Under the pieces are notes generated by a model. It saw only the letters and a list, made by a program, of their open reading frames with translations, was not told the DNA's origin and did no database searches. Below, piece by piece: positions 1,358 through 64,000 of a stretch of 64,000 bases of DNA. How positions within the stretch are numbered: position 1 is the stretch's first letter; each line of letters begins with the position of its first letter. The stretch covers positions 62,001 through 126,000 of the forward strand of contig NIVC01002504.1 in the NCBI GenBank assembly GCA_002269645.1, read 5' to 3'. The stretch is from Macrostomum lignano (Eukaryota). The position numbers and the translations under genes were made by a program.

Positions 1358-3258
<1,901 letters not shown>

Positions 3259-11784: not shown

Positions 11785-19010
<7,226 letters not shown>

Positions 19011-24500: not shown

Positions 24501-26068
24501 TCTACTTTTTCTTTCAGTGCAAGCGGGACATTCCGGGCCTTGAAGAATCTCGGGCGCGCATCCGCCTTCAGCTGTAGGCGAACGGCTGGACCTGCGTATT
24601 TACCGAGACCCGGCTCGAAAACTTCGGCGTACTTGTCTAGCAGGGCCTGCAGCTCTGGGTGCGCGTGCTGCCGCACCTGCTTGATGCCGCGCCAGTCCAG
24701 AGGCAGCTCGGCCAACCAGTCGCGGCCAATCAGGTCCGAGCCGGCACCGTCGACTACGAGCAGCGGCAGCACTTTACTGGCGGCCTCGGTCTGCACGCGG
24801 ACCCGAATCCGGCCGAGCACAGGCACCGCCTCGCCGGAGTATGTTCGCAGCAGGATGTTGGCGCGCTCGAGCTCCGGCCGTCCCCTCAGCACATTGTCGA
24901 AGGTTCTCGATGAGATGAGCGACACCGATGCTCCTGTGTCGACTTCCATGCGCACCGGCGTGCCATCGATCTCAACGGTGGTCTCGATCGGTGGAATCTT
25001 GCCGCTCCCACTGGACGCCATCGCGTGAAGCGAGAAGGTCTCCTCCTCCTCCACCTGCAGCTCCTGGACCGCCGTGTCGCCGCGGCGGCCTGCTCGTTGA
25101 GAAGCAGCGGCCCGATCCTCGCGCTTCGCAGCTGACTTGCGTGCCGCAGCGGTGTGGCCGACTTTCGAGCACGCGAAGCACTTCTTGCTGATGAAAGGAC
25201 ACCTGGCTACTGGATGACGGTGTGACAGGCACCGATAGCACGGCTTGTGCGGCGGCGCAGCTGAATGTTGAAAAGCGTGCACGGTGTCAGAGCCGGTGGC
25301 TTTGGTCACAAGCTGATTGCCTTCGGCCGCAGACTCGTGCGCTTGCGCCAGCGACAGGGCCTTCTCAAGCGTCAGCTCCTTCTCGGAGAACAGTCGACGC
25401 TGAAGCGCGTCATCGCCGATGCCCAGCACCAGTCGGTCTTGCAGCATGCTGTCGAGGCTTCCGCCGAAATTGCAGTCACGGGCCAATTTCCGCAACTCAG
25501 CCAGGAACTCCGCCACCGACTCGCCCTCCTGGCGGCTTCTGTTGTAAAACTTGAAGCGCAGGACAATCTCCGGAGGCACCGGATCGAAGTGCTCCTTTAG
25601 TTTGCCGCATATGTCAGTGTAGGTGGCTTTGTTGGGCGAAAGCAGACTCGAGATCAGCTGGTAAGTATCCCTACCGCAGGTGCTCAGTAGTACAGCTCGC
25701 TTCTTCTCATCGCTGATTTCATTCGCAACGAAAAATTGCTCCAGGCGCTCCTGGTATTGAGTCCAGGTTTCATGCCCTCTTCAAATGGTCCGATTGAGCC
25801 TATCAGACTCATTCCTCGTCGCCACTGTAAAGACTCAGCTTTGGTTGGCAGAACAGTCGACTTGGTAAATTATAATTCTCTTACTCGGCGTTTATATTTT
25901 TTATTTTGAGCAACGTGCAATTGCACACAGATTGCGGGGGAACGTTCCATCGCGTACGTGTTAAGCACAGAGCGAGAAGGCTTGAGCCTGGTGAGCAAAG
26001 AAAAGGTTACGCGCAGGCGAACGACGAAATAACCAAAATAATAATTTTAACTAACTGAGGTCATCACA
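21588..26068 (-). mobile_element. Near-full-length Ty3/Gypsy (Mag-like) LTR retrotransposon
   Basis: LTRs 25826..26068 and 21588..21831 (TG...CA, about 6-7 differences); PBS-like TGGCGACGAG next to the 5' LTR; purine tract GTGAAGGGG before the 3' LTR; domain order gag-PR-RT-RH-IN; imperfect TSD GTAGC/GTAAC. Confidence 0.97.
21899..25812 (-). pseudogene. Frameshifted gag-pol polyprotein
   Basis: Gag (ERLEQFF..., CYRC..RH..C knuckle), protease DTGA, RT FVDD, RNase H CDAS/EKEALA/DHKPL, integrase HH-CC and D,D,E core; split over at least 5 frames. Confidence 0.93.
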
Positions 26069-40879: not shown

Positions 40880-42160
40880 AAAATACCTGCGGCAGCTGCT
40901 TGGCGCAAATGGAATGCAGGCCCAATGAATTTATATTCCTCGATAGCAGCCCGCTTGGTCGCATCCGCTGTGGGCCTATTCATGCCATTTTTTATAACCC
41001 AGCCTGTGAAACTGCATGTCCAAGTTCTTCGGTGGAATATACAGCGCGAAGCAGGCTCTAAAGAGCCTTGTCGAGAACCACCACATCCGCTTCCTTTCCC
41101 TTTTTAGTTAGGTAGTTGCGGAATTCCTGTTTGATAACAGATAACGCAGTCGCCCAAACTTGAACGCTTTCCGTCAGATGTGTGTGCTCGTCATCAGCAC
41201 GCGGTCCAACATCGGCCTCGGTGCCAGCTTCCTTAGCCACCGCGCTGTCCGATGGGTTGCTGGGCTTCAGCGGGTCCGACGTACTGTTCAGCACTACAAG
41301 GTCTATTGCGATGTCTTCGTATTGCCGCGGCTCTGTCCCCACGTTAATAGCTCCTGAGTTGCAGGGATCGACTGGGTTGTTAATGTTCGCAGACTTTAAC
41401 CCGGCCAACACGTTGCCGCTGTCCTTGCAAGTGCGCAGTCCAGCGCTCACTGCGGTCGCCACGTCTGCGAATGCATCCTGCAGTACGCGATGTTCCGCCT
41501 TAAGTATGCCTAAGTGGGTGCTGTACGTGCGGAGCACTGACTCTGCAGCCTTCTGGTCGGCTTCATTAGCGGACCGTTGTTTGGCTAGTGTAGCCTTTAT
41601 TTTCTCCAGTTCATTTTTACTTTCTTCTAGCTCAGCTTTGTAGCTGGCAGCTATTGCCTGCTGTGACTTCCGCTCTTCATCTGCAAGCTGCAGTACGCGC
41701 TCCAATTCGGAACGCAGGGTCGCCGCTTCCTGCTGCAGGGTGGCGCAGCGAGTGCAGGTATTCGCCACTCGAATGATTGGCTCCGCTGGCGCACTGACGC
41801 AGCACTTAATGGCTCTCTCACCCTCCTTTTTTTCGGTATACGGCCCCTTGAACAGTGTGCCTTCGTGCAGCGAGGCCTTAGCTGCATTTTTTGCGACGCG
41901 CACAAGGACATGGGCACCTAGTATGAGCAGCTCGCTCTCGGGATGCGTGTCCGGATCCGCTTCCGCCGCAGCAGATTCGGGTTTAACACTTAGCTGCGTG
42001 CGATTCACGAGGCTGACCTCTTTTTTGCCTGTCGCCCAGCAGACGACCCACCACTCGTCCAAATCCTGTTGGGGAACCGTCGTCCGTTGAGTGGTCGACG
42101 AGCAATTTTTCTCTGCAGCTTTTCTCTTTGTGGTGGCATTCAATTTCTTGGGGGCGCCAT
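40880..42160 (-). pseudogene. Transposon accessory protein: N-terminal Trp-containing beta domain, coiled coil, C-terminal BEN-like domain (disrupted by a stop and a frameshift)
   Basis: The 371-aa ORF continues past TAG (41058..41060) as SLLRAVYSTEELG, then with one frameshift CSFTGWVIKNGMNRPTADATKRAAIEEY, matching the BEN pattern LLxxLFxxEELxxxSxTG...LDxxKxxAI. Likely ATG at 42160 in an AAAAATGG context. Confidence 0.65.
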
Positions 42161-43495
42161 TTTTTGTCTGCAAATGGAAGGGAAACGTTGCTTCTGAAAC
42201 GTCCGACTGCTCCGAACATAACGCTAAATTTTTTTTAAATAATAAACTGATGCAACAATGAACAACACTTTTGAAACAATACGAAACAACACAACATTTG
42301 TTTTAATGAAAAAGGCACTTTCCGTAATTCGTTTACTCACATAATAGTAGGCTTAATGAACATTAAGTATAAGATAAACTACCATAGACGACCAATTCCC
42401 CACTTCAAAAGAGCCCAATAAACGACAATTATTGTTGTAGTCAGATTTTAAATAACGGCGATTGTACGTGCTGTAGGGTTGTTTCCTGTTGACTGAAATC
42501 CCACCACTTAGCTATCAATTTGTTGTAGGAGGGGTCGGGGGCTATTGGGAATTTTCGGGGTTTTCTTAGAATTCGGGGGGGGAACTGCGCAATTTATATT
42601 ACTAACAGGAGTAAGCCATAGGTTGCTCCTGGTGGCGTAATGTGTCCGAGTGGCAAGACACAGTTTTTCTATTCAGTCCGGGGGATATAAATGGGGAAAT
42701 TTAAGGGCTTCGCAGTGGACTTGAGTTGCCTGAGGAAATTAGCGCACTGGGGAACTCTAATATTCAGCAGGGAATGCCTGGCATCAGGGGGTATTCAGAT
42801 GGGGAATTAAGAAGGCAATATGCTTGATCCGGGAATGAAGGAAGGCTAGAATTTTAGCCTTAGTAAGGAGGCAATATGCCTGATGTGGGAAGTGGATAGA
42901 TAACTTAGGCAATAGGCCTAGTGGGATAATTAGGCAGTATGCCTGATGTGGGAGTTAGAGCCAGGGCAAACAGGGAGCCTGGTTGGGGAGTTGGCTGATC
43001 GCCGGATCAAACTGAGGGGTCTGGGAGTAGGGAGAGGCTGTACGCCTATTCGGCTTGGGATGAAAAGGGGGTTTGCAATTCGCCAGAAAGGGAAGGGGTT
43101 GTACGCTCTCTCGAGAGGAGTATAGGGGTAGAGGGGTGACTGTTTGCCTTTAAAGAACTGAGTCTGACTCAATAGCTATTTTTAGAACAAGGCGGCACTA
43201 AGGCCTAATAGCTAGAAGGCGGTAAGTCAGATCGCCAGGACGCAGGCAAGTAGGCAAGTTGGTCCTCTATCCATATATTTAGCTTCTTTATATAGCAAAA
43301 ATAATAAAAATGGCGGACAATTATAAACAAATATTACGTCTCGAAATGGTTAGAAGATTGTAAGTTAGCAAAATAGGAACTTATTAGCGCAAATATATAT
43401 ATATATTTCAGTATCATACCATTATTAGAACTATTTTATGAATATTTCAAACGTTAAAAACGAGCTATAGAAGGAACAGGCAGAAAAAATAAACT

Positions 43496-46204
43496 TTAAT
43501 GAGGCACGCAGAACATACTAAACAAATCAACTGTCTCATACGACTCCTTCACTATGTATACTCCTTCACTAGTGTCTAATTTCACAGACGGAGGCTCTAA
43601 CGAATGAGACAAACAGAAGTCCCTTAGAATTAGGAGAATTGGGTGTGTGGCATAAAGTTTCGCTGTCGCAGCATGCAACAAGAACACAAGGCGCAGACAC
43701 TTCGGTGACATCACTGGCAATGTCGTCAAAAGGGTTGACAGACAGTCTGCGAACGTGACTGTATACACAACCGTTGTGAAATTCATTGGTTGACAGCAGG
43801 AAGTAAGGGTGATCGACATCGGTTCTTTCCTCAACAGGTAGTCGAACAACGGAGAGGATGACATCATCCGTCAGGGCCTCGTGGCGTATGGATTGAAGGC
43901 GCGCAAAGATGAAGTCGCGTCTGCTGTCACCGTTCCAGAGCACTAGGAAGCACGACACAGTCTTCTTCAGTTGCAGTCTGGGGTGCCAGATTTTAAGCTG
44001 TAAACCTGTTGGCAGCACCAGACTGTTTAAACGCCCATTCTGTCATCTGCCACCTCTGTATAGGCGGATTCGGAGACGGTGGTATGCGACGGGTTGTCTC
44101 GAACGACAAACCGAGATGTCACACCCAGCTGTGATTGGACACGCCTGCAGATCAGTTGTGTGTTTGTGATTTCAGCCAACTCGGCGGAAATTCGTTTCGA
44201 ACCATGAATACGGCGACGAAGTGTCAGGTGATGCGATTCGTAGATGCCGGCTGACAAGCAGAATATAGGACCGAATAGCACCGCCATGCTGGGAAAATGT
44301 TCGCACACTTGATGCGCATTGTACGACATAAAATTGGTGGAGTATAGAATGCTGAGCAAACGATAAAAGTAACGTAGTGTTCCGTCGGCACGCAGAACTT
44401 GCACTTGAGACGCTCCGTCCATGCAAAGCCAAAAGATAGACATGGACAGAAGCAGGAAGTGGTTGTAGTAGTCTGCGGGTAGGAATTGCTCGAGAATCAT
44501 TAGACCGTAGACGAGCAGAAATGCTTCCGCCTCGTGACCCCTCATGTGCCCGACCTCGCGGAGAGATCGCCAGCACCACTGCATGGATGCTCGCACGTGA
44601 ATGCGAGACTTCGCTGTGTCAATGACAGCTACACGTCTGCTTAAATCGGGGTTGTTTGCGTTTCTGTCGCCCTTCTTCGCTAGTGGCATGAATAGCTGTT
44701 GCATCAGCGATCGGACTAGCCCACAATTTAGCTGGTGGAGATAGCAAGGTGGGCAGTCCTGCATGTAATCGAATCCGATTATTTGCGACATCGGGGAGAC
44801 CCCCGGGGAGTTCGCTCCGTACAGCCTGCTTCCTGTGCCGCTAGAAGGGCTTGTGCGGAAACGGCACATGGAAAGATCCGCGCGTTTCCAGGGCGATTGA
44901 CGTCGTGCTCAGTCAGTGTAGCATGTTCCACAGCCGTGTATTGCGTTAAATCACTTGATAAACATGGCGTCTGCTCGCTGCGGGGCATTCAAAATGAACA
45001 GCAAAGTGTGCAGCCGGACACATCCCGCTTCGTCGCCGTTCACGCCGCCATCATAGGTGTGATGGATGCCATCAGTCCGAAGAGCATTTAGCTCCTGCAC
45101 GAGCCATGGCATGAAGGCTTGGCAATGCAGCTTCCTCTTGGAAGCCCAAAAGCCACAGAGAACTACGTAGCGACTTTTCTTCGCGTCATGTACTTCGTTA
45201 ATCGTCAAATACACTGGGGAGCAATCGTAAACACTATGACAGAATACTGGGAACGCATCCAGATTCGTGCTTACAGACAAGTCGCGCCGAAGCTGCAAAT
45301 CGATGGACCTCTTAAATGCAGTATAGCGGATTGAAGAGCCCATGTGCAAGTATTCCATGCTGGATGGCTGATCAGCGGGGAAAATAACATTCTGCATTAG
45401 GTGGTCGCGCTCTATGAATTGTCGGATCTGACCCTGTATGTCCAGGCGCCAGAATTGTACTACCTCGGGTCCACCTGGCAATTGTTCACGACAGCAGGAG
45501 ATGCAATAACGAATGCCACCGGCGGCATTAATAAAGTTGCCAAGTACCTTGGCTGTTGTAGGGCAGGCCGAGCCTTCAGGCAAGATGTCAATTGAGTAAT
45601 GCAGCAAGTCGTCTGTGCCAATTTTCGTTGACGCGCGCTTTTCTGCGTACATTTGCGCTAACGTTGCTATGGAACCGTACGTGTGCTTCGACCCTGGGAA
45701 AACGGGATCGTTTAAACGGGCCAGATTAGGATCGCCGCCGCCTCCACCAACGTCGCCTCCGCCGCCTCCACCACCGTCGCCTCTGCCGCCTCCACCACCG
45801 TCGCCTCCGCCGCCTCCACCACCGTCGCCTCTGCTGCCTCCACCACCGTTGCCTCCGCCGCCTCCACCACCGTCGCCTCCGCCACCGCCTCCACCGTCGT
45901 CGCTGTCGACGCTGCCCGAACTGTCACCGGCGTCGGAACTGTCACCGGCGTCGGAACTGTCGCCGCTGGCCGGCCGGTCGTAGTCTCTGGAAGCCCTGGC
46001 GGTGCCCTTAGATGCATCGCCTTCGAAGACGCTGAATTTGCCTTCATGGGCCATACTGGCGTCCTGGCCGTCGACTCTCGAGCTCCTTGCACTAACGCCG
46101 CTGGGGTGCGTTCGCTTCGCCATATGTCTGGCAAGCTTTTTTGCGTGCGAGTTTATACAGCGTCTGAATCGGCGACGCGCCTCATCGTCTTCGTCAGATT
46201 GCAT
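43496..46204 (-). pseudogene. CACTA/EnSpm Tnp2-type transposase, disrupted
   Basis: NLDAFPVF..SPVYLTINE (NTDG..WP..LxINE), LNAPQRA..FNAIHGCGTC (DxPARA..QFNGxxGCxxC), CYLH (C/DxxH), LPADYYNHFLLL, SYNAHQ..GP..SAGIYES; stop at 44951 and frameshifts. Confidence 0.88.
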
Positions 46205-47124
46205 GTGTTTCGTGCTAAAAGTGTGTAAACAAAAAGATTTTATATTTACAAAAAGTGGTGTAGCCATAGTCAAATTGCTGTCTCGTCTATGGCCACATCT
46301 CAAGGCCTACAGTTTCCCCTCGATGGCATTCCGTTCAAGTCCCCCGCTCCTAACACTGGTTCTTTCTTAAGCCAAGAATGACTACTTGACGTTGACGAAT
46401 AAATCTTCATAAGTGCACTTCCATTCTACACCACATTTGCTGTTACAACAAAAAGCTAGGTGGGTCCAACCCTTAATATTTTAGCAGCGAAAATTGAAAG
46501 AAATGTACATTAACATTCATTCATTATGCGTACATCAAGACTATTTACACCACACAGGTGCCAATGTAGTTATATTTTAGTTACTGTTTTTAACAGTCGC
46601 ACGTGCACGTACATGGAACTGGAACAGGTGCATGATCGAAAAACTACAAAGGAAAAAGACACTGCAGCTACGGCTACATGCGCTAGACAGCAAATCCCGA
46701 CAAATCTCGGCAACATAATAAAACTGGAGCAGCTTACGATGCACACAGCCGGACAAAGAGGAGAACTGGCAAAGAAAGCCCAACCCCATATCAACGCCGA
46801 CGTTGCTGTCCAACGCAGCACACACACCGATACTAGTATGCATAAAGCAAAGCGCCATTAATTAAATAAAAAAAAATTGTCCAAAATTAAATCCCACACT
46901 GGGATGAGAGTCTGAATCTTAGAGAAAATGGAGAAAAGGGGTAAGATCCTATTTCAGCATTTCAGGAATTGAAATTCGAACTGATCGAAACTGAGATTTA
47001 CTCAGGCTTGGAAGCCTCCGCCTTCTCGCAACGTAAATCTCGCAACGGCCGCTTGCGGCGTCGTAGAGGCCGCATGGCTTCTATCATTCATGATCTCGTA
47101 TCATCACGATCATCAGATCATTCA

Positions 47125-48090: not shown

Positions 48091-49276
48091 TTCGTTGACC
48101 CCGCAATTCATATTTATCATGTTTATTTATTATTTATTATTTATTATTTTTTATATTATTTATCATATTTATTCACACATATTTAATCTCTTTAAATGCA
48201 ATGTACAATTGCTCGCTAAACCATCGCCATCCACGCCATGCAATCCACGCCATGCACGCCTTGCATGCCAAAGTGTATGCCAACCCCTTAAAATATATAC
48301 CAATGCACGCCATGCATGCCAGCTGAAAGCAAATGCACGCCGGAAAATTCAGGCGTGCACTACATGATCCGGACTTTAGGTGCCAAGTAGATACATACCA
48401 GTGCCAAGTAAATGCACACCAGTGCCAAGTAGATATACACCAGTGCCAAGTAGATGCACACCAGTGCCAAGTAGATGCACGCTAATGCCAAGCAAATGCA
48501 TGTCAAACTAATATATTACAGAAAAAACACAACTTTTTGTTTAAAAAATGCTTTTCAAAAAACAAAACTTAAAAATTTTGTAGCATGCAAATATATAACA
48601 TTTCTTTTTGGCACATTAAAATTTACTTGTCATTTTGCAATAAAAATAAGTATGAATTCTTGTCTTTATAAGACCATGTCTTTTCACAAACTTTTGTCTC
48701 AACAAAACATGCCTTACTATCATGCCAGGCCATATTTTATATCAGCTATTCCATGCCATAGCATGCCAATATGCCACTTTTAGTATGTAATACCTAAATA
48801 CATGCCAATGCATGTCATAATTTTTAGGCCAAATTAAATGCGTGCTTAGAATTTTCTAGCATGATATATGCTTTCTAGAGTATAGCTTGCAGACCTACAC
48901 AACAAAGATATGTTTGGATATGTAGTTGCAATATTTGTTTTAGGTATCCATGCAATATATGAAATACATGTTTTTGTGGTTGCAGTTACATATCTATCTT
49001 GTTTCTGAAATGTACCCAAGATATGTAATAGATACATTGCTTTATCCCTTATATGTACCTTATTAGCTGTTATTTCTATCCTTTTTTCACTTTTTACTCA
49101 GCTCACAATTCCCAAATGCAGCCTCAGAATGAATGCTAGTTCATCCTAGTGCACATATGAATCTATAAAAAGTAAACTCAACACAAAAACTTATTCAAAT
49201 TTATTCAAAACTTACATTAAACTATAGTATGTCAAAAGCTGGCACTTATAGATGCCATATAAATAATTAAATTTAT

Positions 49277-52200
49277 ACGGAATTGGAATTGCTGGAATTG
49301 CTTTGACCCAGCGGGAGTACAAGTCCACGATATTTAGTAAATACCGCAGCTGGGGTACGGCTGTTTCGATTGGGTCCGGCACTGGGAGCGGTCCGACTAA
49401 ATCCATGTGGACCATTGTGAAACGCTGTATAGGTGCATGCATGTGGTGCAGTGGTTGGCAAACATGACAACCGATTTTCGCTGATTGACATTGTGTGCAT
49501 TCTGCTGTCCAGCGCTATATGTCTGACTTCATGCATGACCAGAAAAAATGATGGGCGACTAAACGCAGCATGGCCTTCACGCCTGGATAGGCGATGTAGT
49601 GCAGTGCTTGTACAATCTGACGGCGCACGTGCTCTGGTATGAACGGTTGCAGGTTTGGTTTCAAAGTTTCGCAGTACATCGGACAATCTGATAACCTGGC
49701 GTCGAATGGGCGGTAACGGTCACCGCTCGTGAGCCCCGCTTCTCGCTGTGCCTTGGCAATCGCAGAGAGATCTGCGGGCAACTGCAATGTGTGCACGTCT
49801 TCCGATTAGACAGTGTTCACTGTATGCTTGCCAGGTTTGACGATGTCACGAGATAAGGTATCAGTGATCATGTTCTTAGCTCCTATTCTGAGATCACATA
49901 TTCTGAGATGGTGGCCAACTGGCGCTGCTGCCGATCAGATAGGCGCTGCTTATTGCTATTGAATGCACCGACTAACGGCTTGTGGTTGCTAAACACGGCT
50001 GTGGGCTGGCTGTGAATGATGTGTCGCCAGGTCTTGATGGCAGCAAACACGCCTAGAAGTTACGGTCGAACGCGCTATATGCAATTTCCGCTTTGGTGAG
50101 CTTCTGTGAATAGAACGCAATGGGGACTGAATCACCGTCTATATTCTGGTGTAAACTGGCGCCCAATGCGAACGAGCTGGCGTCCAATGTGATGGTGAAT
50201 GAACCAGTTGGGGTCGGGTCTGTCGGGAAGGCGAGAGTCACTGCTGCCGCTAGGCTATCCAAGAGCTTTCGGAAGGCGGAATCATGTTCTGCTTGTCAAT
50301 GATAATCAATTTCGGTGAGCAATCGCAGCGGTTGCATAATGCTTGCGTATTTCGGAATGTGGCGCTGGTAGAAACCAAACATGCCAAGAACGCGCTGAAG
50401 GCTCTTGAAGTCTGCTGGAGATGACAGCTGTCGCAGCGCTTCCACGCGGGATGGTAGTGGCTAACTCCGTCTCGATGCTAAAAAACCGTCTCCTTCCAAA
50501 AAACTTGATGCTACTCTGAAAAAACTGGCATTTTGTGGGTTGAACTCGGAGCCCCTCTTTGTGTAGGCGTTGCAGCACGATCTGAATGTCGTTGTGATGG
50601 TCTGCCTCTGACTTGCTGTGAATCAGTATATCGTCAGCGTATGTGATGACACAGATCAAGTCTCAAAACAGCGAATCGATGAAGCGTTGAAATGTGCTGC
50701 CGGCATTGCGCAACCCGAATGGCGTCCGGACGTATTCAAAAGAGCTGAATGGCATGCAGATTGCTATTTTCGAAATATCCTCCTCGGTATGAAATGGTAG
50801 GCCTTGACCAAGTCCAATTTGCTAAAACACGCTGTTGCTACGAAGTTGGTGGTAAAAATGCCGGATATGCAGAAGTGCGTACCTATTGGCCACCGTCATG
50901 CTGTTCAGAGCGCAGTAGTCCCCACAGGGTCTCCACAATCCGACGGCCTTCTTGACCATCTGGAGTGGTGATGCCCAAGGGCTGCAGGACGGGCGGACAA
51001 TGTCCATCTGTACGAGCTTGTCAAATTCTGCCTTGGCCACCTCGTACTTTGCAGGCGAGAGGGCGCGGCTTGCAGTAGACTGGTTCGCCTGACGTGATGA
51101 TGCGATGCTGCACCGGAGTTGCTGGCAGGATTGAGTGATCCGCAGCTTCGATCAGCCCGGGATATTTGTCAAAAATTGCACTACCGTCGACGTCGGATAC
51201 CACGTGGATTGACGGTGGTCGAAACTCTTGCTTGGCATCGAAATTGAGCGGCGCAACCAGCAAAGTCAGGGGATCTCGAAAGCACTTGGCTCCCATGTCG
51301 ATGGAAAGTTCATAATGAACCAAAAAATCCAATCCAAGAATGGGGGCTGTGTCTGCGACAATGAAGTTGAATTGAAAGGTGCAGCGTAAACCTTTTAACG
51401 AAAACAAAGCATTGCAATGCCCGTGGGTGCGGACTTTGTGCCCACTGCCCCCGCGAAGCTGAACGTTACAGGGGGTGCTGAGGTTAAACGGGACAAAACA
51501 CGGAGGCAATAAGAATTTTTCTGCCCCAGTGTCAACGAGGAATGAAACAGACAAACTTAGTATTTGAGCGCAAACGATAGGTGTGCAGGCCTGTACGTTG
51601 TTATGGCCTGGCCGCAGTACATGACTTACGTACTTGTTTGGGGTCGGCAAAGCCATGCGAGACTAGGCGGGTGTCGACTGACCTTGTCGGAGTATGTTCG
51701 ATGGCTTTGGACCTGGCCACTTGCACCAGGGTCGGCAAGTTCGAAGCTCTGTCAACATAGTAGATGTGCACATTGCAGACGAGTGGTTGCTGCCGTCGGC
51801 GAGGCTAGGCGTCGTGAGCCGGAGGGTCAGGTCGCCGGGAGAAATGCCGGGCCAGTTGCTGCTCTGCATTAGCAGCAGTGGACAACTGATTGATGTCGGC
51901 GAATGGTGAGGGTCGACTGGCAACTGCAAGCATGCTGTCCGCAATCTTGGCAAAATCCTCCAGCGGGCTTGTGCTCATGTCCGACGAGTGCGGAGCGAAT
52001 GTGGGGCAGCAACGCAGAGATAAGGCGTGACTTGACTATGGCGTCGTCAACTTTCAGGCTGACCTCGGTAAATTGGCGTTTTATTTCATTGACAAATTGG
52101 CTTGGTCTCCGATTGCCAAGTTCCATGGCAGAAAGGGCTTCCTCGATTAGCTGATGCCGATTAGCGCGCAGTCCATCGCCCACCGCCTTCTTTAACGCAT

Positions 52201-52450
52201 CGTAGTCGTTGCCGTTGAGGTTGAGTTTGCATGTAATATCCTCTGGGAGGGTTGCTAAGGCATAATGGTATTTGGTGTAGATGCTAGTAAGGTTGGCGAG
52301 CGCAAATTGTGACTCCAGCTGATTAAACCAGGTCTTTGGTGACTTCCTGTAAAAAAACAGGTGGTCAAACCGTTACACGGTTGAGCTCGTTGTGCTGCGT
52401 TGGAAGCAATGGCTGTTCTTGTTGTTGTGTTTGCTGCTTGTGGGCACTCA
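49277..52450 (-). mobile_element. Heavily decayed Ty3/Gypsy element (gag-PR-RT-RH-IN 5' half); LTRs not identified
   Basis: Gag KTWFNQLESQF and LGNRRPSQ; PR FLVDTGA; RT SPWASP..DY..LN and YADD; RH LDASSFALGA; IN VHMDLVGPLP, truncated at ~49277. Confidence 0.9.
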
Positions 52451-53039: not shown

Positions 53040-55970
53040 TCCCGTCATCACCAACGAGCTGTCAAGCAATCAGTGTGCCAGTCCCTGTGTCCCTGTGTGC
53101 CAGGACGGGCCGTTCTGACTCGGTCCGGGTGACAATCGCCGTGTTGTGCCCAGCTTGCACGACGAACTCGGAGAGTTCTGGCCGTGCGCTTTGGCGAGCT
53201 TGGTTAACGATAGGGGCGTCCGTCTCAAAGGTCAGCGTCAACGGGCTTCTCAGTTGCCGACCCATCAGCGCCGAGGGGCTGCCTCGGCCGTCACTACGTG
53301 GAGTCGCTCGGTAGTTCAGCGTGAGCTTAGCCAGGTATGCGTCAAACTGTCCTTGATGAGCTACAAACGCTTTGAGTCCTCGCTTTACAGGCTGCAACAT
53401 CCGCTCGGCGCAGCCATTGGACTGCGGGTGGTACGGCGACGTGAAGAGCTGATTGTAGCCGAACCGCTCCAGCCAGCCTTTAACCACGAGAAGACTGATG
53501 GTAAGCAGTGCTTACCATGGCCCAACTCAACTTTCTGCCGACCAGAGTAATTTAAATTCTATGGCTAAATTGGTAGTATCCGTTCTTGCCGGATATGGTA
53601 AGCACTGCTTACCATGAGTATTCTAGGTTTTCTTGTTTTCTGACAATTATAGGCTTTGTATTCTACATTCTCAATTGTTTCCTCAGTAACGTTCCTTTGT
53701 GCTTTGGTTCAAAAACACACGTTTTGTTCGAAGAGGCTTCAATAAAGTTTGAAATCGAATTTACTAATAACAGAGTTAAACAACAAAAACGAGAATGAAA
53801 AACCTGATAATATTCTGGCTGATCGAACTTACTGCGCATACAGAGCGTACGGCTCGTGCACTACAGAAACTATAACTAGTGAAACTAATATAAATTATCA
53901 AGAGTTGTGAACTAATTTGAGCTAAAGACAAGAGCCAAAAACAGTAAACAGAAAGGATGAAAACTTTAGTTTTAGCGGAAAGTGAGTCCATTCTGCCGAT
54001 GCTCGTACTTTAACGCTGCGAATGCCAGCGTTGGAAGCAATCTAACAAACAAAGTCCCGGGCATCCTGGACATCGGCTGCAGAAATAAACTGTGCGCCGG
54101 GAACTGGCAGAACTGTAGCACATTCTGCACCTTTTCGTTGGTCTGGGCTGGGTAGAACGACCTGGGATTTTCTCCGGAAAATGCTGCTCAGGGACTGCAA
54201 CTGTTTGCAGCATGGAAGCCGGTCGCTTCCTGCCATTTCCAGTTCGCTCTATCAAATCACGGATGCTGGCTTCGAGATATCTGATAAAAGTATTCTGGCC
54301 ACCACACTTGCAGTACAGAACCCAAGCGTTGCGCACCATTTGAAGGCACATATGCAAACCCAGCTTGTGGAACCATTTTTTTGTTTTTCTGCCGGCTGCA
54401 GGGTGCCGTCCAGCGTGTCCACTCCACCCATGCAGCGATTGTAAGTTATCACACTGCGGCTCTTCTGCACTGCCACATGCTGACCAGCTCGATTGATCTT
54501 GACTTTCTCTGCCTTTGACGCAACGTCCTTCGTGTCCAGCAAATACAAGGTCTTGAATCCACTCTGCTTTCTCTCGACAGCCTTCACAATCAGAACACGT
54601 CCCTTCCTCGCAAAAGCTACATTATTCAGAACCACTAAAGCCTGCCGAAGCTGAGCCGGAACTCCTCGGTCTGGCCTCACGGTGCCCGTCAAGAACGTTG
54701 AATGGTCGATAAGGAACTGGGACAACCTGTATGATGTAAACCAGGTGTCAATTGAGGCCAGCAGTTCTGGTAAATTCAAAACATTCTGTCCCTTCATCGG
54801 ACCCAGGCTCGACAAGTCGCCAAACATTCTCAACTTCAGCAGCATCACCATCTGCAAACTCCTGTTCTTCCTTGCCGTCAGGCCCTTCTATGGTTGGAGG
54901 ATTGCCATCCAGTGCTTCTTCGCCAACCTCCTCGCCAGGCTCCTCGTCTATTGTTAAGTAGGAGTCGAGGCTTGCTTCACTGTCAGAGGTCATGTAGTCG
55001 ATCTCAGAGGCAGAAGCCATGTACTTTAGGATATCAGTGAGTAAATACTGTGTCAAATTTAGCGAGAAAAGGCTAACAAACAAGATGGTAAGAGTGTTAC
55101 TGTAAGAAAGCTAGTTTTACTACAAAGGGGACTTGCTGTCTGAGCACAGATTTCTATGGTAAGCAGCGCATACCAAGCAGGCAGCAAGTGAAACTGTTTT
55201 ATTGGCTAAAGCAGTAGTGCTGTTCATTTCCTTCCCGTCTAGCGCGTCAGTTTGAGCCAAGCTGGATCAGTAAGCCTAGCCGGCAGGAATGGAAGTGACA
55301 TGCTATGCCAGAAAATATCTATGGTAAGCACTGCTTACCAAGCAGACGGGAACAGACAAATTATGGATTCTGGTTAGGCAGGAAGAGGTTAAGCCCCTGA
55401 TCGTGGAACTCTGGTGCGTTGTCAGACACCAGAGTGTGCGGTACGCCTAGCCTCACGAAGATGGCCCGTAGAACTCGAATCACTGTCCTCGCGCTCTTGT
55501 CTGCCACGTGTACGGCTTCCGGCCAGCCAGAGAAAGCGTCAACCAGCACCAGGATCAGGCTGACCCCCGACACGTGAGCATTGTGTGTGTGCACCCGCTT
55601 TTAAGGCGTCTCCTCGATAGGCCACGTGTGCACCGTGCGATTGGGCAGTGGTTGGATCCCCGCACATGTGCACTGCTTCACAAATGGTCCTACACCATGT
55701 TCAGCGTTCAGCTCTGTCTGGACGACCTTCGGAACCTTCAACGGAGTGCCACCATCTGTAACTCTCCAATTTAAAATGGTGCAAAAGCATTGTATATTAT
55801 GCAAACATGCCTGGTTTGGTGCCTTGATAGAAAAAAAGGATGTTGGCGGTTTCAGCTCGTCGGGGCCGCGTGGTGGCACTGCTTTAAATGTCCTGAAGGT
55901 CGCCTGTATGTCCACAGGTCAGCCTAGAGGAATGAATCGTCTGTTTAATTCACCGATTATGTCTACTGAC
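53040..55970 (-). pseudogene. Mag-like Gypsy integrase relic split by a piggyBac insertion
   Basis: LVDAFSGWPEA..VSDNAPEFHDQGL (55389 upward) joins KGWLERFGYNQLFTSPYHPQSNGCAER (53483 downward) in frame when the insert and one TTAA are removed. Confidence 0.9.
53484..55388 (-). mobile_element. piggyBac-family internal-deletion derivative (1905 bp)
   Basis: TTAA TSD at 53480..53483 and 55389..55392; acidic N-terminus, DTWFTS, YNRCMGGVDTLD, C-terminal Cys-rich domain (RCRMC..FCSRC..LC..CF..WH); the region with the first catalytic Asp is missing. Confidence 0.93.
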
Positions 55971-58264
55971 TGAATGCTGCGTGCAGAAGAGGATTATTCC
56001 ATTTCAGTTTTAGGAACGCAGCCGTCTCTGAGATGCCAATCAGGTGCTTTTGTTGAAGGTCCCGACGGTCGCCGCCAATGCTTTAGACTGTAATGAAGGG
56101 GACCCTGGTTCCTGGGATACTGAGAAGAAAAGCCTCTACGACTGATATGCATAGTTTTTTGAGGCAAAGTTAGCAGAAAAAATTAGCCATTGTTGGTGGT
56201 TTTTGCCACGACACCCCGAGGAGAACCGTTGAATATCTCGACGATGCCGATTTTTCGTGATTCTTAAAGTTGATTCATCGAATAGAGCGGAAAATGTTAG
56301 CCCGTGTTCTGGATTTTCATGGCAATTGGTTACATCTTTTTGGAGATCCAGACAAAGGAAAAATGCAGTGTGTATTTGAAATACACCCTATGGTATTTCT
56401 ACTGTTAAACAATTCAAGTGTAAAAATTACTTACAGGCTAAGTCCCGTCAATTACTAAAACAGTGGAATGCCTATATTTACCAGTATTTTTAGGATAAAT
56501 AGTTGGATGAATACGAGACATTGTATGGTTATCTGTGGCAGACTCGTAAAATAGTACGGTTCGTCGCAGCTTATCTGAAAATTTCACCTGGCTGTTTAAT
56601 TCAGCAAGTCCTATCACGTTGATTAGCTGCTTCTGCATAAATGTCATTCTGTCCAAAGCAACGCTATATCCTGTAATTTAGAGCCAGCTTTCCTATCCTA
56701 TTCCAGGTTCGCTTACAGAGATTTTGATATAAGAAAAGGTGGGCTTTGGGGCCTCGCTTTTTTACTCATGCTTAGAGTTCGGATACCACTCCACTAGGAA
56801 AATTCTACACATCTGGCTACACATATGGCCCGATCGGGGCAGGCATAATTATTTATTTTTCATTATTCGAAAAGAGTCTGTAAAGATAGGTAAAGATTGC
56901 TGTCGGCTTCACATCTGTCTCAATTTTAGGATGGACCGCAACTGTCCATCCTAAACCGCTCGTGCGAACCGCTCCTTCTGAGATGAATTTATTCTAGGCT
57001 GCTCTACAGATTCTAGATTTTTAGTTTCAGGTTCCTGATATTCGATATTCATGTTCACTTTGGGCCGAAAACAAGACAGTTTCTATTTGATCAATCAACT
57101 AGGAAGATTGAAAAGTAATATCATTTAAAAACAATGCAAGTGGCCACAAAATTTATCATGCAACTGTAATATTTCCTGAATTCGTCCGTACTCATAAGAG
57201 AATTAATTATTTGGATATTTTTCGATATATTTTATGCAACCTTAGATAGGAAGTGCTTATTAAATAGCCCGCATAAGATTTAACAGTTATTAAAAATTGC
57301 TTTACGAACTGTAGTACCTATTTAGCATTACCATTACGAGTATTTTAAGGAAAAGTGATACTGTAAAATACTTTAATTCATAGGCATAGGAACTGCTAGT
57401 TAAGTAGTCTGCTAGTTATAAATTTGGCCCTGGCCCCTAGCTCGTACATATCTCGAAACCGATAGGAAATTGCGTTCGCCACGGCACGGCTCCGGCAACT
57501 GAAAATAATAACGGAAATTGAAGAGTTTCAAAGTAGCATGTGAAAGAGTTGGAGACAGGGAAAGATTGAGGTCCCAAAAGTGCAAAGTAACAGGTGAAAG
57601 ACTTGGAGAAAGGGAAAGATAGTGCACAAAAGTGCAAAGTAGCATGTTAAAGACTTGGAGACGGAAAGATTGAGCTGACAAAATGACATCATTTTTGCCT
57701 ACAAAATAAAGCAACAGTTGGTCTGCATCGCGCGCATTGTTCAATAGTTGGCTTTTAGTGCTAAGAGCTAAAGAGCTAAGAGCTAAAGCTTAAAACCTCA
57801 CGGTGCCTTCTGAAAATTGGCATAATTTATGCCAGAGATGAGAGATATATTCTGTAGAGTTGAAAATCAAATACATGTATGTCTATAAAATAATAGATCA
57901 AGTGTTTAAAACAACGAAACGGTCATATGAAACTTGCGTCTAGCATACTTCGTAGGAAATATAAACCATATACTCGTAAATGGATTAGTAGTATTCTGTA
58001 GGCTGCTGAACTCGATGCTTGGACAAGATGGGCGAAAACTAATGGCGATTAATTTGCTCAAGAATGAAACTAAGCTTCCGTTATTTGTCACACCCCTCCA
58101 CTAGAGTGCCTACTACTCGTAGTATGTATCTGTAAGTTCGTGATAGCGGAATCCCAAAGTCGGTCGGTCGTACACCACCCAATTTCATCACTACACAATG
58201 CGCTTAAGCAAGCCACGAGATTCAATAATTCAGACAAAGTATTTAGCAAGGTGTCATGGTAAAG

Positions 58265-58320
58265 CAGGGGTAGGCAAACTCTGGCCTGCGAAGCCTCGCT
58301 ATCCGGCCCTCGGGTCCTTT
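58265..58320 (+). mobile_element. Orphan hAT (Charlie-type) terminus
   Basis: CAGGGGTAGGCAAACTCTGGCC..ATCCGGCCC; partner end not found. Confidence 0.5.
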
Positions 58321-59111
58321 GAAACTTCACAACAGCACAATAGCAATCCGGTTTGTGTCTTTTCTCAGATTTCTTCTCTGTAATCTCTCTCCTTTTCCTA
58401 TCTCTCTTCCTCTCTTCGGCAAGTGCCTGCGGCGCCAAAATGAAAACCTACGGCGCCAAAAGAGCGTTGACAGGCACGTTTACGCTAAGAAATAGATAAT
58501 TAAAATCTCGCTAATAATGACAACCTGAAATCCTTCAGGCTTTATGTTCCTCTCAGCCAGTCGACCTTTCACTTCCTCCAGGCTCAGAGGGCAGTAGAAT
58601 GCATGAGGGGGCTTCTGGGACAAAATTTTTCACGTCCTCCATAATCCTATTAAATCCATCTATATTATCCCCGACAGAATCAGAAAAAAGGGGGGTCGCA
58701 CTTGCTCCGAAAACTTCGAACATAATCCACCTAAATCCATCCATATTATCCCCGACAGAATCAGAAAAAAGGCTCAGCAATAAGAAAGACTCTTTTCTAT
58801 TTGAGAGAGCTCTTAGCTGAGCGTAGAATACGAGACTTCAACTGGCAGCCAAAGCGGCCTTTATATTATATTGAATATGACCGACGGCAACATGCCGCCT
58901 ACATTAGGAGTACAGCGCGATCAAACTTCAAGCTTTAGCATATAGAATAGAAAGATGCAACGTGCCGCGCGTGCACACTAAGTACGAGTACATTGGTAAT
59001 GAGTACACTAGATATTAAGTACGCAGATACGCAACGCGAGTCAGATATAGTTAGTGAGCGGCGGGCGGCGCCACAATAACTTTGCAGAAATCATTAGGCA
59101 ATTGTGATTTC

Positions 59112-59974
59112 TTACATTCTCTCAATGATCAACGTCAATACAAACTCTTCACCATTGAAATCAACACCCACCCCATCTTCAGTCTCAAACTGTTGCACAA
59201 TCTCGTGAATCTCCTTATTACTCAATACAACTCTTTTCACTGGATTTGGTTTCTCTACCAGCATCTGTCCTCCAGCAACAGAGTTAGAGATGTTGTACAA
59301 AATATTCGTTCGCTTTCCCTTAAATACCCAATCAAGACTGAGATTACTTCTGATTAGAATATTCAAACCCTTTACAATGTCTGCAATATTGGGTGCTAAG
59401 AACAAACCGCTTACATTTTCCCGGACCATGATAACGGCCCTGACGCTTGAGTGGCGGTCTGTGGCGCGGATTCTGCCTTATAAACTTTCTTCTCGAATCC
59501 CAATTCCCTATACCATGTATCATCTTTAAATTCCACCTCCGCATCTTTGTGAACTTGCATGACCACTCTCATTACAGTAAGATCATAGGATAGTTTGACA
59601 GGGAACAATTTTTTATCTGGCTTACTCGCATCAGGTGTCTCAAAATGGTCTCTTTTAGTAAAGACGTTTTCTAGAAAGTAATTGTTGGTATCCACACTTT
59701 GCGTGCTAACAGGGAATACCACAGGTTCTGCTGCTGCACTTTTCCATTTGTAATAAAACTTATTATTTGCTGCCGACACATTAGGAACGTTTGACCAACC
59801 AGTGAAGTCGTTAAGATAGACATGGTAATTTGCACCTGGATCCAGGCGAATCGCCTGCTCTAATTTTTGAACAAATATCCCGTTTGAGTCATTTATTCGC
59901 CCAGTTATTGTAATAGGAATGCTCTCCTTGGAGTGAGAAACAATATTATTTAGTCTTTCAGCAATCGCTTCCAT
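59112..59974 (-). pseudogene. Minor capsid protein (penton, single jelly-roll), one frameshift near 59430
   Basis: IRLDPGANYHVYL..SNVPNV..NNKFYY, ELGF, NILIRSNL..NILYNI..GQMLVEKP..IHEI..GVGVDFNGEEFVLTLII match Polinton mCP motifs. Confidence 0.82.
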
Positions 59975-59993
59975 TTTTTCACATAAAAAATAT

Positions 59994-61279
59994 TTAAACT
60001 TTACTGGATGAATTGTTGATCATGTTAAGCTTCACCTTCCTCTCAAATGCATAGACAATGTACAGGTCCACAGGTGTTGCGACAGTCCTCTCAATGTTAG
60101 TCACGATATTCACAGGGCTGTTATCAGTAGGCATTTGTCTGGCAGACACATCAGCTCCAAACATCGGATATAGAGTTCCGTATTGAAGAGCAGTGATATC
60201 AATTCCATTGTTCTCTTTCACAGCCAAGTCGACCAACTCGCTGTAAAATTTGCTGATCTTGTTCTGACTGAAATCTCCATTTTGTGGCAGTGCAGGGTAA
60301 AGATTATCACTGATTTCATGCTGAATGGACCGCTCGTCTCCATGCATGTAGCGTATAATGCTATTTGGGTTTCTCATGTTAATAATAATATACCTTGGAT
60401 TGCTGCATGATCCCTCTTTAATGCAGATGTTTGTTCTAGTTTCGTTTTGCTCATCTCGACACATGTAGGCCGTGTATGCAACATCAATGTCCTTCTCTAT
60501 TGCCTTGAGATAATCCGCTTTTAGTGCGGTCTTTGGCTCAATGACTTCCAAATACAGCTCGATTCCGGTTAGCTTCACCTCCATCCTAGTGTGGTCCGCT
60601 CCAGTCCACAACACTCTACTGCGATCATCTCTAGCAGTCTAAATGTGTAGCTAAAGTTACTAGTCAGTCGATTAAATGTATTACAGAATCCACTCATGAA
60701 TCTCAGTGGTACAAATACATCAACAGACCAATACTGTGGGTTCTTAGCAGCATCATCAGCACCTTGCAATGCATAGTTGTATCTCTTATTCCTCTTTTTT
60801 TAGCCACTGTCATTGGTGTCTTCTTCTTTTTCATCTGCAATAAAACCTGCACCACTTCCCAACTTAATAAAATCAGGATTCTCGATCAAACAATGAGCGT
60901 CATAGACAATTCCAAAGTTGGCGATTCGCTCCAGCTCAGTGCTCCCATTCGATACACTAAACTCCTTGAACATGTACGCCCAAAAGTTACTGATCAGAGC
61001 CACATCTGCATCATGCTTGTCAACGTTAGCACGAGCCGCATCCGCACCACCCTTTGTCTTGAATTGAAATGTCATATGGAAGCCGCTCTTAAGACTGTGC
61101 ACACTAACCAAAGACAAACATCCATTGTATGTAAGTGTCAGTGTTTGACCAGGACCAAGATTAGTTTCATTCTGATTTTCCTGACTGGGAACTCTTACCT
61201 GAGTCGCTTTGATTGTGCTATCATCACTCAAAATAGGCTTGTTAATTTTGTAGAAAACTGGTGTCAGTGGGTCGTTCAT
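59994..61279 (-). pseudogene. Major capsid protein (double jelly-roll), about 2 frameshifts
   Basis: DDSTIK..., NFWAYMFKEFSVSNGSTELE, SGLKKR (reconstructed), FVPLRFMSGF, NPRYIII, YP, YGTLYPMFGADVS, LYIVYAFER; ~430-codon span typical of Polinton MCP. Confidence 0.82.
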
Positions 61280-61309
61280 TTTTTAACTAAAAATAAAATA
61301 AAATAAGAA

Positions 61310-62618
61310 ATGAAGCGAAAAAGTACACAGCAGATATTTGAATTGGAGAAGCTAGCACAAGCAGAGAAACGAGTTACCGGGCTAATAAATAAGGAGCAAC
61401 AATCCTACAATGAGTTTGTCCAAGCAGCCACAGAGTTTCATAAGCCCGGGTATGGAGAAGCTAAGAAAAACATCGACACTGTGAAGGAAGCAATTGATAA
61501 TATTCAAGAGAGCCAATTGCAAAACACATTGGGTAAAATCCCATCTTCACCAGAACAACCACAGGCTCAGCAACCATGACAACCAGTGCAGATGAATGTG
61601 ACGGATAACTTTTTTGGCCCCGTAATGGTTGATGGAAAATATATTTTTGGAATTAGCGCCTGGCGAAAAGAAATTACCAAGGAACCGGTGGATTACAACA
61701 TTGAAGTGACAAAGGAAAATATTTCAATCAATAAAGGTGCAGAAACTAAAAGAATCCCCTACACTAAAACTTTACTTGATTACATGACTAAAAATTGGGA
61801 AAAAAATCCGAGACACAGTTGAAGAATTATAGAGATCTTGTTACCTTCGCTTTAGAGAGGGACATATACGCTCGTACATTCTCAAGAACAACGGTATTTT
61901 GAAAATGTTATATGAAAACAGAGTTTTCTTGAACGGGTTTAAAGAGTACAAATACTTTAAACAATGGTTCGGTTTGCCAGATCAGCTGGAAGTCATAAAA
62001 TATCTAGAACAACAACAGCAACCGCCACAACAACAGCCGCAACCACAACAACCTCCACCTCCACAGCAACAAAAAATCCCAGCTGAACAAGTTCTTGATC
62101 AACTTGACGCTGCAGAACCGATTTATGTTTGGCAGTACAAAGATAGAAACCCTGATACTTGGCGACAATTAGAGCGGCTCTCCCCAGAACGAATGAAGCG
62201 AATCAATGACAGAGTATTCACACCTAGGCTACAGCAACCCTCACCAGGAACATCCTCCTCTGACCATTCATTCGAATCACCTCCAAGCTCTTCCGGAAAA
62301 GGCATGCCTGAATTCTACAAGCGGTTAGCTGTTCTTCTAGGAGCGGCAAAGACCGGAATGAAAGATGAGAATAGAAAAGAGTTCGTTCATATCCTAGACA
62401 AAATGCTTGAGAGAAAATTCATCGATAAAAGAGCAAGAGAATTTTGCTTTCACGGTTTAACAAAAAATAAATTTCTATTTAAAAAGATGCCAATTATTTT
62501 TAGAAAGACGTGGACAAATACTATGACAAAGAGGAACTTAATCTTATTAAACGCGGATCTGGACTTCCAAGCCACTATCCAAGAAAAGAACGCTCTGGGA
62601 ATGGCCTTGCCGATTTGA
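61310..62618 (+). pseudogene. Conserved Polinton-type hypothetical protein (PW/PZ-like), with a stop at 61577 and about 2 frameshifts
   Basis: Fragments in register (FFGP..IFG, QLKNYRDLV, Q/P-rich linker) ending with RLAVLLGAAKTG..EFVHILDKML, resembling the RLxLLxASxxAGN..EIxxI motif. Confidence 0.55.
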
Positions 62619-62800
62619 TTGCTCAGGGGGCCAAGATTTTTAAGGTCATTGGAGAGAACAAAGAGAACATCAAGAACGTTGCCGAAGCGGCTGGCAGTGT
62701 AGCCACAGCAGCCGAAAAGATAAAGGATACTGTAACACCTAAACAAGAGATTCAACCTCTGTCTCCGCTGGCCCGCTGGCCCCAAATCCAGACAGTGTAG
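62487..62800 (+). CDS. Small putative virion core/membrane-active protein with GxG motifs and an amphipathic helix
   Basis: KRGSG, RSGNG followed by LADLIAQGAKIFKVIG; likely ATG at 62487 after TATTTAAAAAG requires one frameshift. Confidence 0.45.
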
Positions 62801-63444
62801 ACCCTGCAGTCTATGAGAAGATGAGAGCTAGCATTAAAAAAGGAAGTGGTTTCAAATTTGACTAAAGGGTGCTTTCCGAGGGTACAAGACATGTAAGAGT
62901 ATAAGACTAGTCCCAAAATGACACATCTAAGTCCCGAAATGACACATCTAAGTCCCAAAATCATCAGAAAGTTGGTCCACTGGTTGGTGAACGGTGCACG
63001 TCTTTTCAGCTCGTAGAACTGTTCCTTACAGAGAACCCGCTCCATTCTCAGAAAGATCCTCTCGAGCTGTAGGCCGTTTGCAAAGCCATGCTTACCATGC
63101 CGTTCAACTAGTTTATTAAGGTTGGCAATCTGTACAAGCACCGCGTCGATCGTGAATGTTCCCTGCTTAAATTCTTCTAGAGAATGCTCTGGCACAGGCT
63201 CACTGTTGGTCTTGTAGGCCATGCGCAACTCGTCCAGAGCCTTGCTGATTTGTGATTGCTTGTCGGCAGTTTTCGCTAGCCGACCACTGATAGTTGGCTT
63301 CACGATGGGTGACCGAGCAATTGCATTATATTTATCGGCCCAAACATTCCAATTGTCAAGATCTTTACTAGAAAAAACCGCCTTGATGAAGTTCTCCAGA
63401 TTTTCGATGTAAACGTTGTCGCCTGCTTGTATTTCAGCATCCAT
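62752..63444 (-). CDS. Orphan 230-aa helical protein, convergent with the viral plus-strand ORFs
   Basis: Uninterrupted ORF with GCCATGG start and an upstream GC box (63510..63518); the C-terminal third may be out of frame (21-bp duplication). Confidence 0.5.
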   Translation of the reverse strand: MDAEIQAGDNVYIENLENFIKAVFSSKDLDNWNVWADKYNAIARSPIVKPTISGRLAKTADKQSQISKALDELRMAYKTNSEPVPEHSLEEFKQGTFTIDAVLVQIANLNKLVERHGKHGFANGLQLERIFLRMERVLCKEQFYELKRRAPFTNQWTNFLMILGLRCVISGLRCVILGLVLYSYMSCTLGKHPLVKFETTSFFNASSHLLIDCRVYTVWIWGQRASGDRG

Positions 63445-63636
63445 GGCAAGATCCAGAGATTAAGCAAGTGAAAAATAAAAAGTTGCTGGCGCGGCTCAGC
63501 AAAGTCCGCGGGGCGGGGCCAGTTGGAGCAGGCAGGGTAAGGTGAGGGGTGGTGTGAATCGGCTGTTTACATACCATTGGTGTGGGCTCGGGAATCCATG
63601 GATGCATTCTACTGAGGGCTTATATTAACTTCATCT

Positions 63637-64000
63637 TCAAATGCCTCTCTCAAGGCTTTCAAGTGTTAAACTTCGATCCTTCTCTAGCCGACCGGAGGCA
63701 GTGGCAATGGAAGCGGAGTGTCGAACAGCGGCTGGCTTTGAGGACAGATAATACGGTGCGTTAGCAATGATAGTTGGCACTGCGTCCTTCTTTACCTTTT
63801 CACCACCTCCGTGGTAAAGTTCTTCTATCTGTGAAAATTGTTTTCGGGATGTTCCTCGATTTCCCGTGCAGGGAGCACATTCTCGGGTGCTTGGAACTTG
63901 GAAGGAACAAAGCCTTGGCTTGGCTTTTATCCATAAAGCTTTAAGAGCTTCGTCTTTCGGAAAATAATGAAATGTCACCTTTGTCTCGGCTTGTTGCAGA
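63637..64000 (-). pseudogene. THAP zinc-finger domain fragment (P/Harbinger-type transposon gene), runs off the window
   Basis: FHYFPKDE..LW, RMCSLH (shifted frame), KKDAVPTI, PYYLS. Confidence 0.75.

Follow-up and report, generated by a model that had tools for sequence, protein, structure and literature searches.

A broken Polinton-derived insertion with capsid-type genes and 12-bp terminal repeats in the genome of Macrostomum lignano

Do the capsid-type genes found at one locus of the Macrostomum lignano genome belong to a virus of this animal, to a Polinton whose enzyme genes lie further out, or to a smaller derivative? The window, by which we mean the whole 64,000-nt stretch analysed here (contig NIVC01002504.1, positions 62,001 to 126,000), contains a gene group that a preliminary description, made from the DNA letters alone, placed at 59112–63444 and regarded as a Polinton/adintovirus-like virion module and a candidate virus of its host. 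We propose, with a probability of roughly 55%, that it is an integrated Polinton/Maverick derivative with broken capsid-type genes, whose enzymes were most likely lost by internal deletion near position 62961. The element has both ends, a target-site duplication (TSD) and capsid-type genes with breaks, and it belongs to a multi-copy family in which other deletions occur. The Polinton-type virion module is supported by relatives of its major capsid protein (MCP) that pass the Pfam double-jelly-roll (DJR) model and by the 6-bp TSD frame; the candidate virus proved to be a broken remnant, with every gene disrupted and no enzymes.

The ends of the element and its insertion site

The capsid-type gene module is enclosed in a closed insertion of 5,021 bp (58593–63613). 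The left terminus (AGTAGAATGCAT; 58593–58604, plus strand) forms a perfect inverted repeat with the right terminus (63602–63613, plus strand), which is the reverse complement of the left 12 bp. This 12-bp terminal inverted repeat (TIR) is flanked by identical plus-strand copies of GAGGGC at 58587–58592 and 63614–63619; among duplication lengths of 2–11, only 6 fits. Across the whole window, a TSD-type 6-bp flanking repeat occurs in one of 350 inverted 12-mer pairs, namely the ends of the element. The end motif, AGTAGA//TCTACT, agrees with (AGT)2//(ACT)2 at five of six letters, and blastn with word size 7 detects no similarity between the two ends beyond the 12 bp. The TIR and 6-bp TSD that the preliminary description proposed to look for in the flanks were thus found, at 58593/63613; the range it gave covers a real module but missed these ends, and it includes a fifth ORF (62962–63444, minus strand) that went unmentioned.

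Evidence from other copies comes from contigs of sequencing runs X1, X3, X4 and X15, in which summed contig depth does not equal copy number. A joint 59819→58593 in X1 (depth 257) makes position 58593 a boundary in another copy too. This joining of the left terminus to the penton gene at 59819 likely represents one family copy inserted into another. At the right junction, a single X3 contig matches 63590–64000 with 0 differences, with 24 letters inside the element, which is below the 31-letter bar of the method. The uninterrupted flank is seen in the DNA-type runs X1 and X4 as a joint 58589→63614, lying no more than 3 bp from the TSD, at depths of 170 and 25 compared with about 257 and 39 for the respective single-copy flank; this joint misses a clean empty site by 3 bp and is flagged "between: not known". 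A second X1/X4 joint at single-copy depth, 58097–63683, skips 5,585 bp, and represents another version of the THAP-type flank that lacks more than the Polinton piece.

As judged by its sequence, the insertion target is a THAP-domain transposon-like sequence of the host, with a sub-threshold Pfam match: the THAP-domain ORF (63637–63999, minus strand) lies outside the element and scores E 3.7e-4, below the cut-off. Inside the left end, two 52-bp subterminal direct repeats with 81-bp spacing (58640–58772, plus strand; 92% repeat match) form the deepest-covered bin, and their number differs among copies according to the depth table and back-jumping contig joints. They are followed by a low-copy subterminal segment (58776–58975) at about 2–12 times single-copy depth in the contig depth tables. 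A high-copy short repeat (58263–58461) adjoins the left side of the element; its end presumably resembles those of hAT-type MITEs.

Elsewhere, the window contains an animal-type, intron-bearing host gene encoding RasGEF and C1 domains (exons 12681–16896, minus strand) and a ChaC-like exon at 2153–2452. The stretch occurs in 20 sequencing runs from 8 studies, all of which bear the same organism label. Other mobile sequences are piggyBac-type transposase pieces (DDE_Tnp_1_7, zf-Tnp_2; 53498–55342) between palindromic 22-bp repeats at 53498, 53595, 55156 and 55321, and LTR-retrotransposon gag/protease/RT/integrase remnants at 21900–25780 and 49200–52400. Three long minus-strand ORFs at 41061–46306 (413, 292 and 450 aa) have no clear Pfam match and are possibly another transposon.

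Capsid-type genes, their relatives and the enzyme genes

The MCP gene (59994–61279, minus strand) runs from an ATG at 61279 to a stop at 59994, and is interrupted by an in-frame stop at 60800–60802 and a frameshift near 60633. Its own three pieces and an X read-through gave no score against Pfam. The two halves of the protein are 73–80% and 64–72% identical to five full-length relatives, the closest members of an unnamed metagenomic clade (P0001–P0005, P0011 and P0012), and all five MCP relatives scanned passed the cut-off of PF21738, the Pfam DJR family, with scores of 29–45 bits. By way of these five relatives, 64–80% identical, the MCP is predicted to be a double jelly roll. Its acidic loop and KKRNKR motif, originally taken for insertions, align with 0 gaps over 215 aa to P0001, P0004 and P0011 and are nothing unusual for this clade; the basic motif preceding YNY occurs in the sister clade too.

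An MCP profile search returned 291 proteins at E ≤ 0.001, of which 150 were listed. In a rapidly built 92-row tree, composed of unnamed sequences with no named Polinton reference, the window MCP falls in a six-row clade (SH-aLRT 100) with P0012 as sister (99), within a 26-row group (99). P0001 shares 43% identity with P0012 and about 24–27% with full-length members of the wider group. None of 25 looked-up proteins and their clusters carries any name other than "hypothetical protein", and the best reading of these sequences is that the MCP comes from a clade with no named member among the proteins looked up. The suggestion of an undescribed lineage is accordingly neither refuted nor proven: the six-row clade is unnamed and its sisters are only about 24–27% identical, but the tree has no named reference. 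Two ENA proteins, P0013 and P0171, are 84–93% identical to the MCP and penton of the window copy; P0013 has a large internal deletion, and decayed close relatives thus exist in other assemblies.

Downstream of the MCP gene on the same strand, 59112–59974 is likely a penton-type (minor capsid) gene, although the match is sub-threshold. It has a frameshift near 59440–59470 and, at the same place, a real insert of about 20–22 residues relative to eight full-length or near-full-length relatives, slightly shorter than the 25 aa or so first estimated, and shared with P0171 (86–87% identical). The gene layout stands as described: MCP and penton on the minus strand, an ORF starting at ATG 61310 on the plus strand, and between the divergent start codons a 30-bp spacer (61280–61309) with A or T at 28 of 30 positions.

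The plus-strand ORF (61310 to approximately 62460) is broken by a stop at 61577–61579 and shifts near 61800–61880 and 62440, and its family is unconfirmed. It contains what we take to be a PZ-like motif; the label "conserved Polinton ORF" found no significant match in any search, the hhalign comparison with a sister-clade ORF giving E 0.36. The small core-like gene (62487–62865, plus strand), with G-x-G-L/F motifs and two frameshifts, is by contrast confirmed by homology to the gene upstream of the MCP in sister-clade contigs: BLASTP gives E 2e-7, and among 1554 window peptides a profile of five sister-clade ORFs matches 62504–62797 at E 2.2e-9, with the next best at E 5.3. The terminal ORF (62962–63444, minus strand) comprises 161 helical codons in a low-copy segment and is likely cut at 62961. 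No relative of it was found, the sister-clade loci lacking one as well; Atlas hits (best 0.86; gag-type rows 0.83–0.84) are leads only, and its structure model has a pLDDT of 43.7. All four named genes (penton, MCP, plus-strand ORF and core-like gene) are broken, and with a background disagreement in the flank of about 1 gap per kb (X3 record 17), some of the frameshifts may be assembly errors.

The enzyme genes expected of a Polinton were sought within the element. A general Pfam scan gave no pPolB match in its 10 ORF pieces, and neither Pfam nor the integrase protein of sister locus L001 as query detected an rve integrase; the latter matches only an integrase remnant outside the element (55364–55600, E 4e-4). 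For the FtsK/A32 ATPase and adenain-type protease, profiles built from three and four sister-clade ORFs gave best E-values of 0.57 and 1.1, respectively, among the 1554 window peptides. Between the ends, the longest stretch without an assigned gene is about 520 bp. Since the insertion is closed by TIR and TSD, the element itself lacks pPolB, integrase, ATPase and protease. The view that its replication and packaging genes are to be found outside the window is therefore wrong: this copy ends at 63613, where its terminus and TSD match those on the left, without them.

Enzyme genes are present in the sister clade, represented by 13 metagenomic loci of the wider group (L001–L013, 1–9 kb). These include an rve integrase in L001 (E 2e-13), A32-type ATPases in L001 and L008, and protease-like ORFs, adjoining the MCP and core-like genes; there is also a weak Adeno_PX match (E 0.0019), and no pPolB was seen in the 13 loci. 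In L001 (2–2713, minus strand), the integrase domain occupies residues 562–647 of a 904-aa ORF, fused to N-terminal parts that we presume to be HNH- and phospholipase-like. The arrangement differs from that of the window: the sister loci carry the core-like gene directly upstream of the MCP on the same strand, whereas the window MCP and penton face away from it, and no penton of the window's family was detected in the sister loci, whereas the window element has a penton-type gene.

Copies of the family and the origin of the short form

Contig depths define a multi-copy family with many deleted copies. Summed depth over the capsid genes is 140–570 times that of the flank, and at least 15–47 times after division by contig number, compared with 2–12 times for the two subterminal segments. 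In X1, the left and right subterminal segments reach 2,600–3,200 and 1,350–2,600 versus 36,000–146,000 for the capsid genes, and depth falls about 30-fold from bin 62801–63100 to bin 63101–63400. One-off deletions are common in the family, since single-copy depth is also seen for several further internal skips (59285→59652, 59830→60954, 62017→62502 and more). The 1,123-bp skip 59830–60954, found in all four runs, starts 11 bp from 59819 and carries a 7-letter filler. At the two stops of the window copy, all listed contigs have a different reading, and most of the family therefore lacks them; contigs drop rare repeat variants, and the missing stops do not show an error in the window.

The likely deletion junction, marked by its sequence repeat and by contig breaks, is a 21-bp tandem repeat of 2.5 copies (62909–62961, plus strand), through which the terminal ORF reads on in antisense. 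In both X3 and X15, one contig follows the window rightwards from 62961 and on its left side leads into other sequence, and none of the listed contigs bridges 62961. The scans returned no locus of the close MCP clade, and no full-length parent was seen in them.

According to our preferred account, a parent of about 15–20 kb would have encoded rve integrase, pPolB, ATPase and protease, and its integrase would have cut a target with a 6-bp stagger to give the GAGGGC duplication. The copy would belong to a small subfamily (about 2–12 by depth, which is not a copy number) whose ends share 12 bp only; the similarly low depth of the left and right subterminal segments argues for such a subfamily. 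Integration would need no more than a short terminal motif, because the right end shares only these 12 bp with the left. A single deletion at the tandem repeat near 62961, at or after insertion, would then have removed the enzyme genes and cut the terminal ORF, followed by decay, and this copy alone would make no particle. The best reading is thus that the window copy is a decayed and internally deleted member of a Polinton subfamily whose ends are asymmetric and unusually short.

The perfect TSD that frames the 5-kb form could also mean that this form was itself copied and inserted as a unit, a non-autonomous capsid-module satellite moved by its 12-bp ends through the pPolB and integrase of a helper Polinton. 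We regard this as possible but doubtful. The subterminal segments on both sides are multi-copy and similar in depth, the order of the four structural-type genes is preserved, and mobile polB-less polintons are reported in Pieris butterflies, which, like the window element, lost a replication function and kept their ends; these, however, are structural variants of at least 12 kb with LINE/LTR cargo and several copies, whereas the window element has lost all four enzymes (10.1101/2025.02.07.637071). It further speaks against a unit of 5 kb that other right-segment copies enter different sequence at 62961 (X3, X15), that the terminal ORF looks cut there, that all genes are broken, and that no second 5-kb copy was seen among the listed contigs.

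The depth drop and the unlike ends beyond 12 bp, together with a terminal ORF that has no relative in the sister-clade loci, would also be expected of a recombinant of two Polinton families, in which the left end and capsid module of an abundant family and the right 650 bp of a rarer one integrated as a unit; we consider this improbable, as the left subterminal segment is as low in depth as the right, which fits one subfamily, and no second family was seen. It is very unlikely that the short form is an assembly artefact, that is, that the assembly collapsed a full-length copy, or joined it wrongly, at the 21-bp tandem repeat, with part of the breaks being sequence errors: the repeat is just 53 bp long and the unique flank matches contigs almost exactly. 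Such an error would account for a junction that coincides with a tandem repeat differing in unit number from copy to copy and that is bridged by no listed contig, and for stops that occur in no listed contig, but contigs lose rare repeat variants and missing letters mean little.

Relation to known elements and implications

Polintons are described as 15–20-kb elements with pPolB, INT, ATPase, protease, PY (MCP) and PX (penton), and their known concerted losses affect the capsid side, namely MCP, PRO and ATPase (PMC4028283). Intact vertebrate Mavericks span 12.7–24.6 kb with TIRs of 46–1,447 bp, 6-bp TSDs and ends of (AGT)2//(ACT)2 or (AG)3//(CT)3, and 96% of loci are degraded (PMC8097293); Polinton TIRs are elsewhere given as 100–1,500 bp (PMC10748475). 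The window element resembles animal Polintons/Mavericks thus described in its DJR MCP beside a penton-type gene, its AGT..ACT ends, its 6-bp TSD and the decay typical of most copies. It differs in its size of 5.0 kb, its 12-bp TIR, its AGTAGA ends and its lack of pPolB, INT, ATPase and PRO, an enzyme-side loss that reverses the capsid-side losses known. The element is Polinton-derived, but in its four missing enzymes, TIR length and size it is not an autonomous Polinton.

Adintoviruses likewise have hexon- and penton-type genes, a small core-like gene and integration with terminal repeats (PMC8502044; 10.1101/2024.03.25.586562), and the sister-clade contigs resemble them in their rve integrase, ATPase, protease-like ORFs and weak Adeno_PX match; unlike adintoviruses, the window copy is without PolB (OTU-bearing), chromodomain integrase and adenain. 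Orthopolintovirales-related insertions have been surveyed across eukaryotes (10.1101/2025.04.19.649669), and a study of the anole reported finding no non-autonomous Polintons (PMC3014272). In the literature covered, no Polinton was described that has structural genes only and 12-bp ends; supplements of papers and Repbase may hold the clade or architecture. Repbase contains non-autonomous Polinton entries.

The replication, integration and mutual dependence of Polintons are known almost solely from sequence, and a clean 6-bp duplication despite ends with just 12 bp in common suggests that the end signal is very small. Through the MCP, a metagenomic capsid clade that has no name is linked to an animal host with many sequencing runs. 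If a one-off deletion produced the short form, the element is an unremarkable fossil, belonging to a new Polinton family whose ends are odd; if it is a satellite, it would define how little of the ends Polinton integration needs, and would place in an animal host a clade that is otherwise represented by environmental contigs. With enzyme-bearing and enzyme-less copies side by side in a genome, dependence on helpers could be counted.
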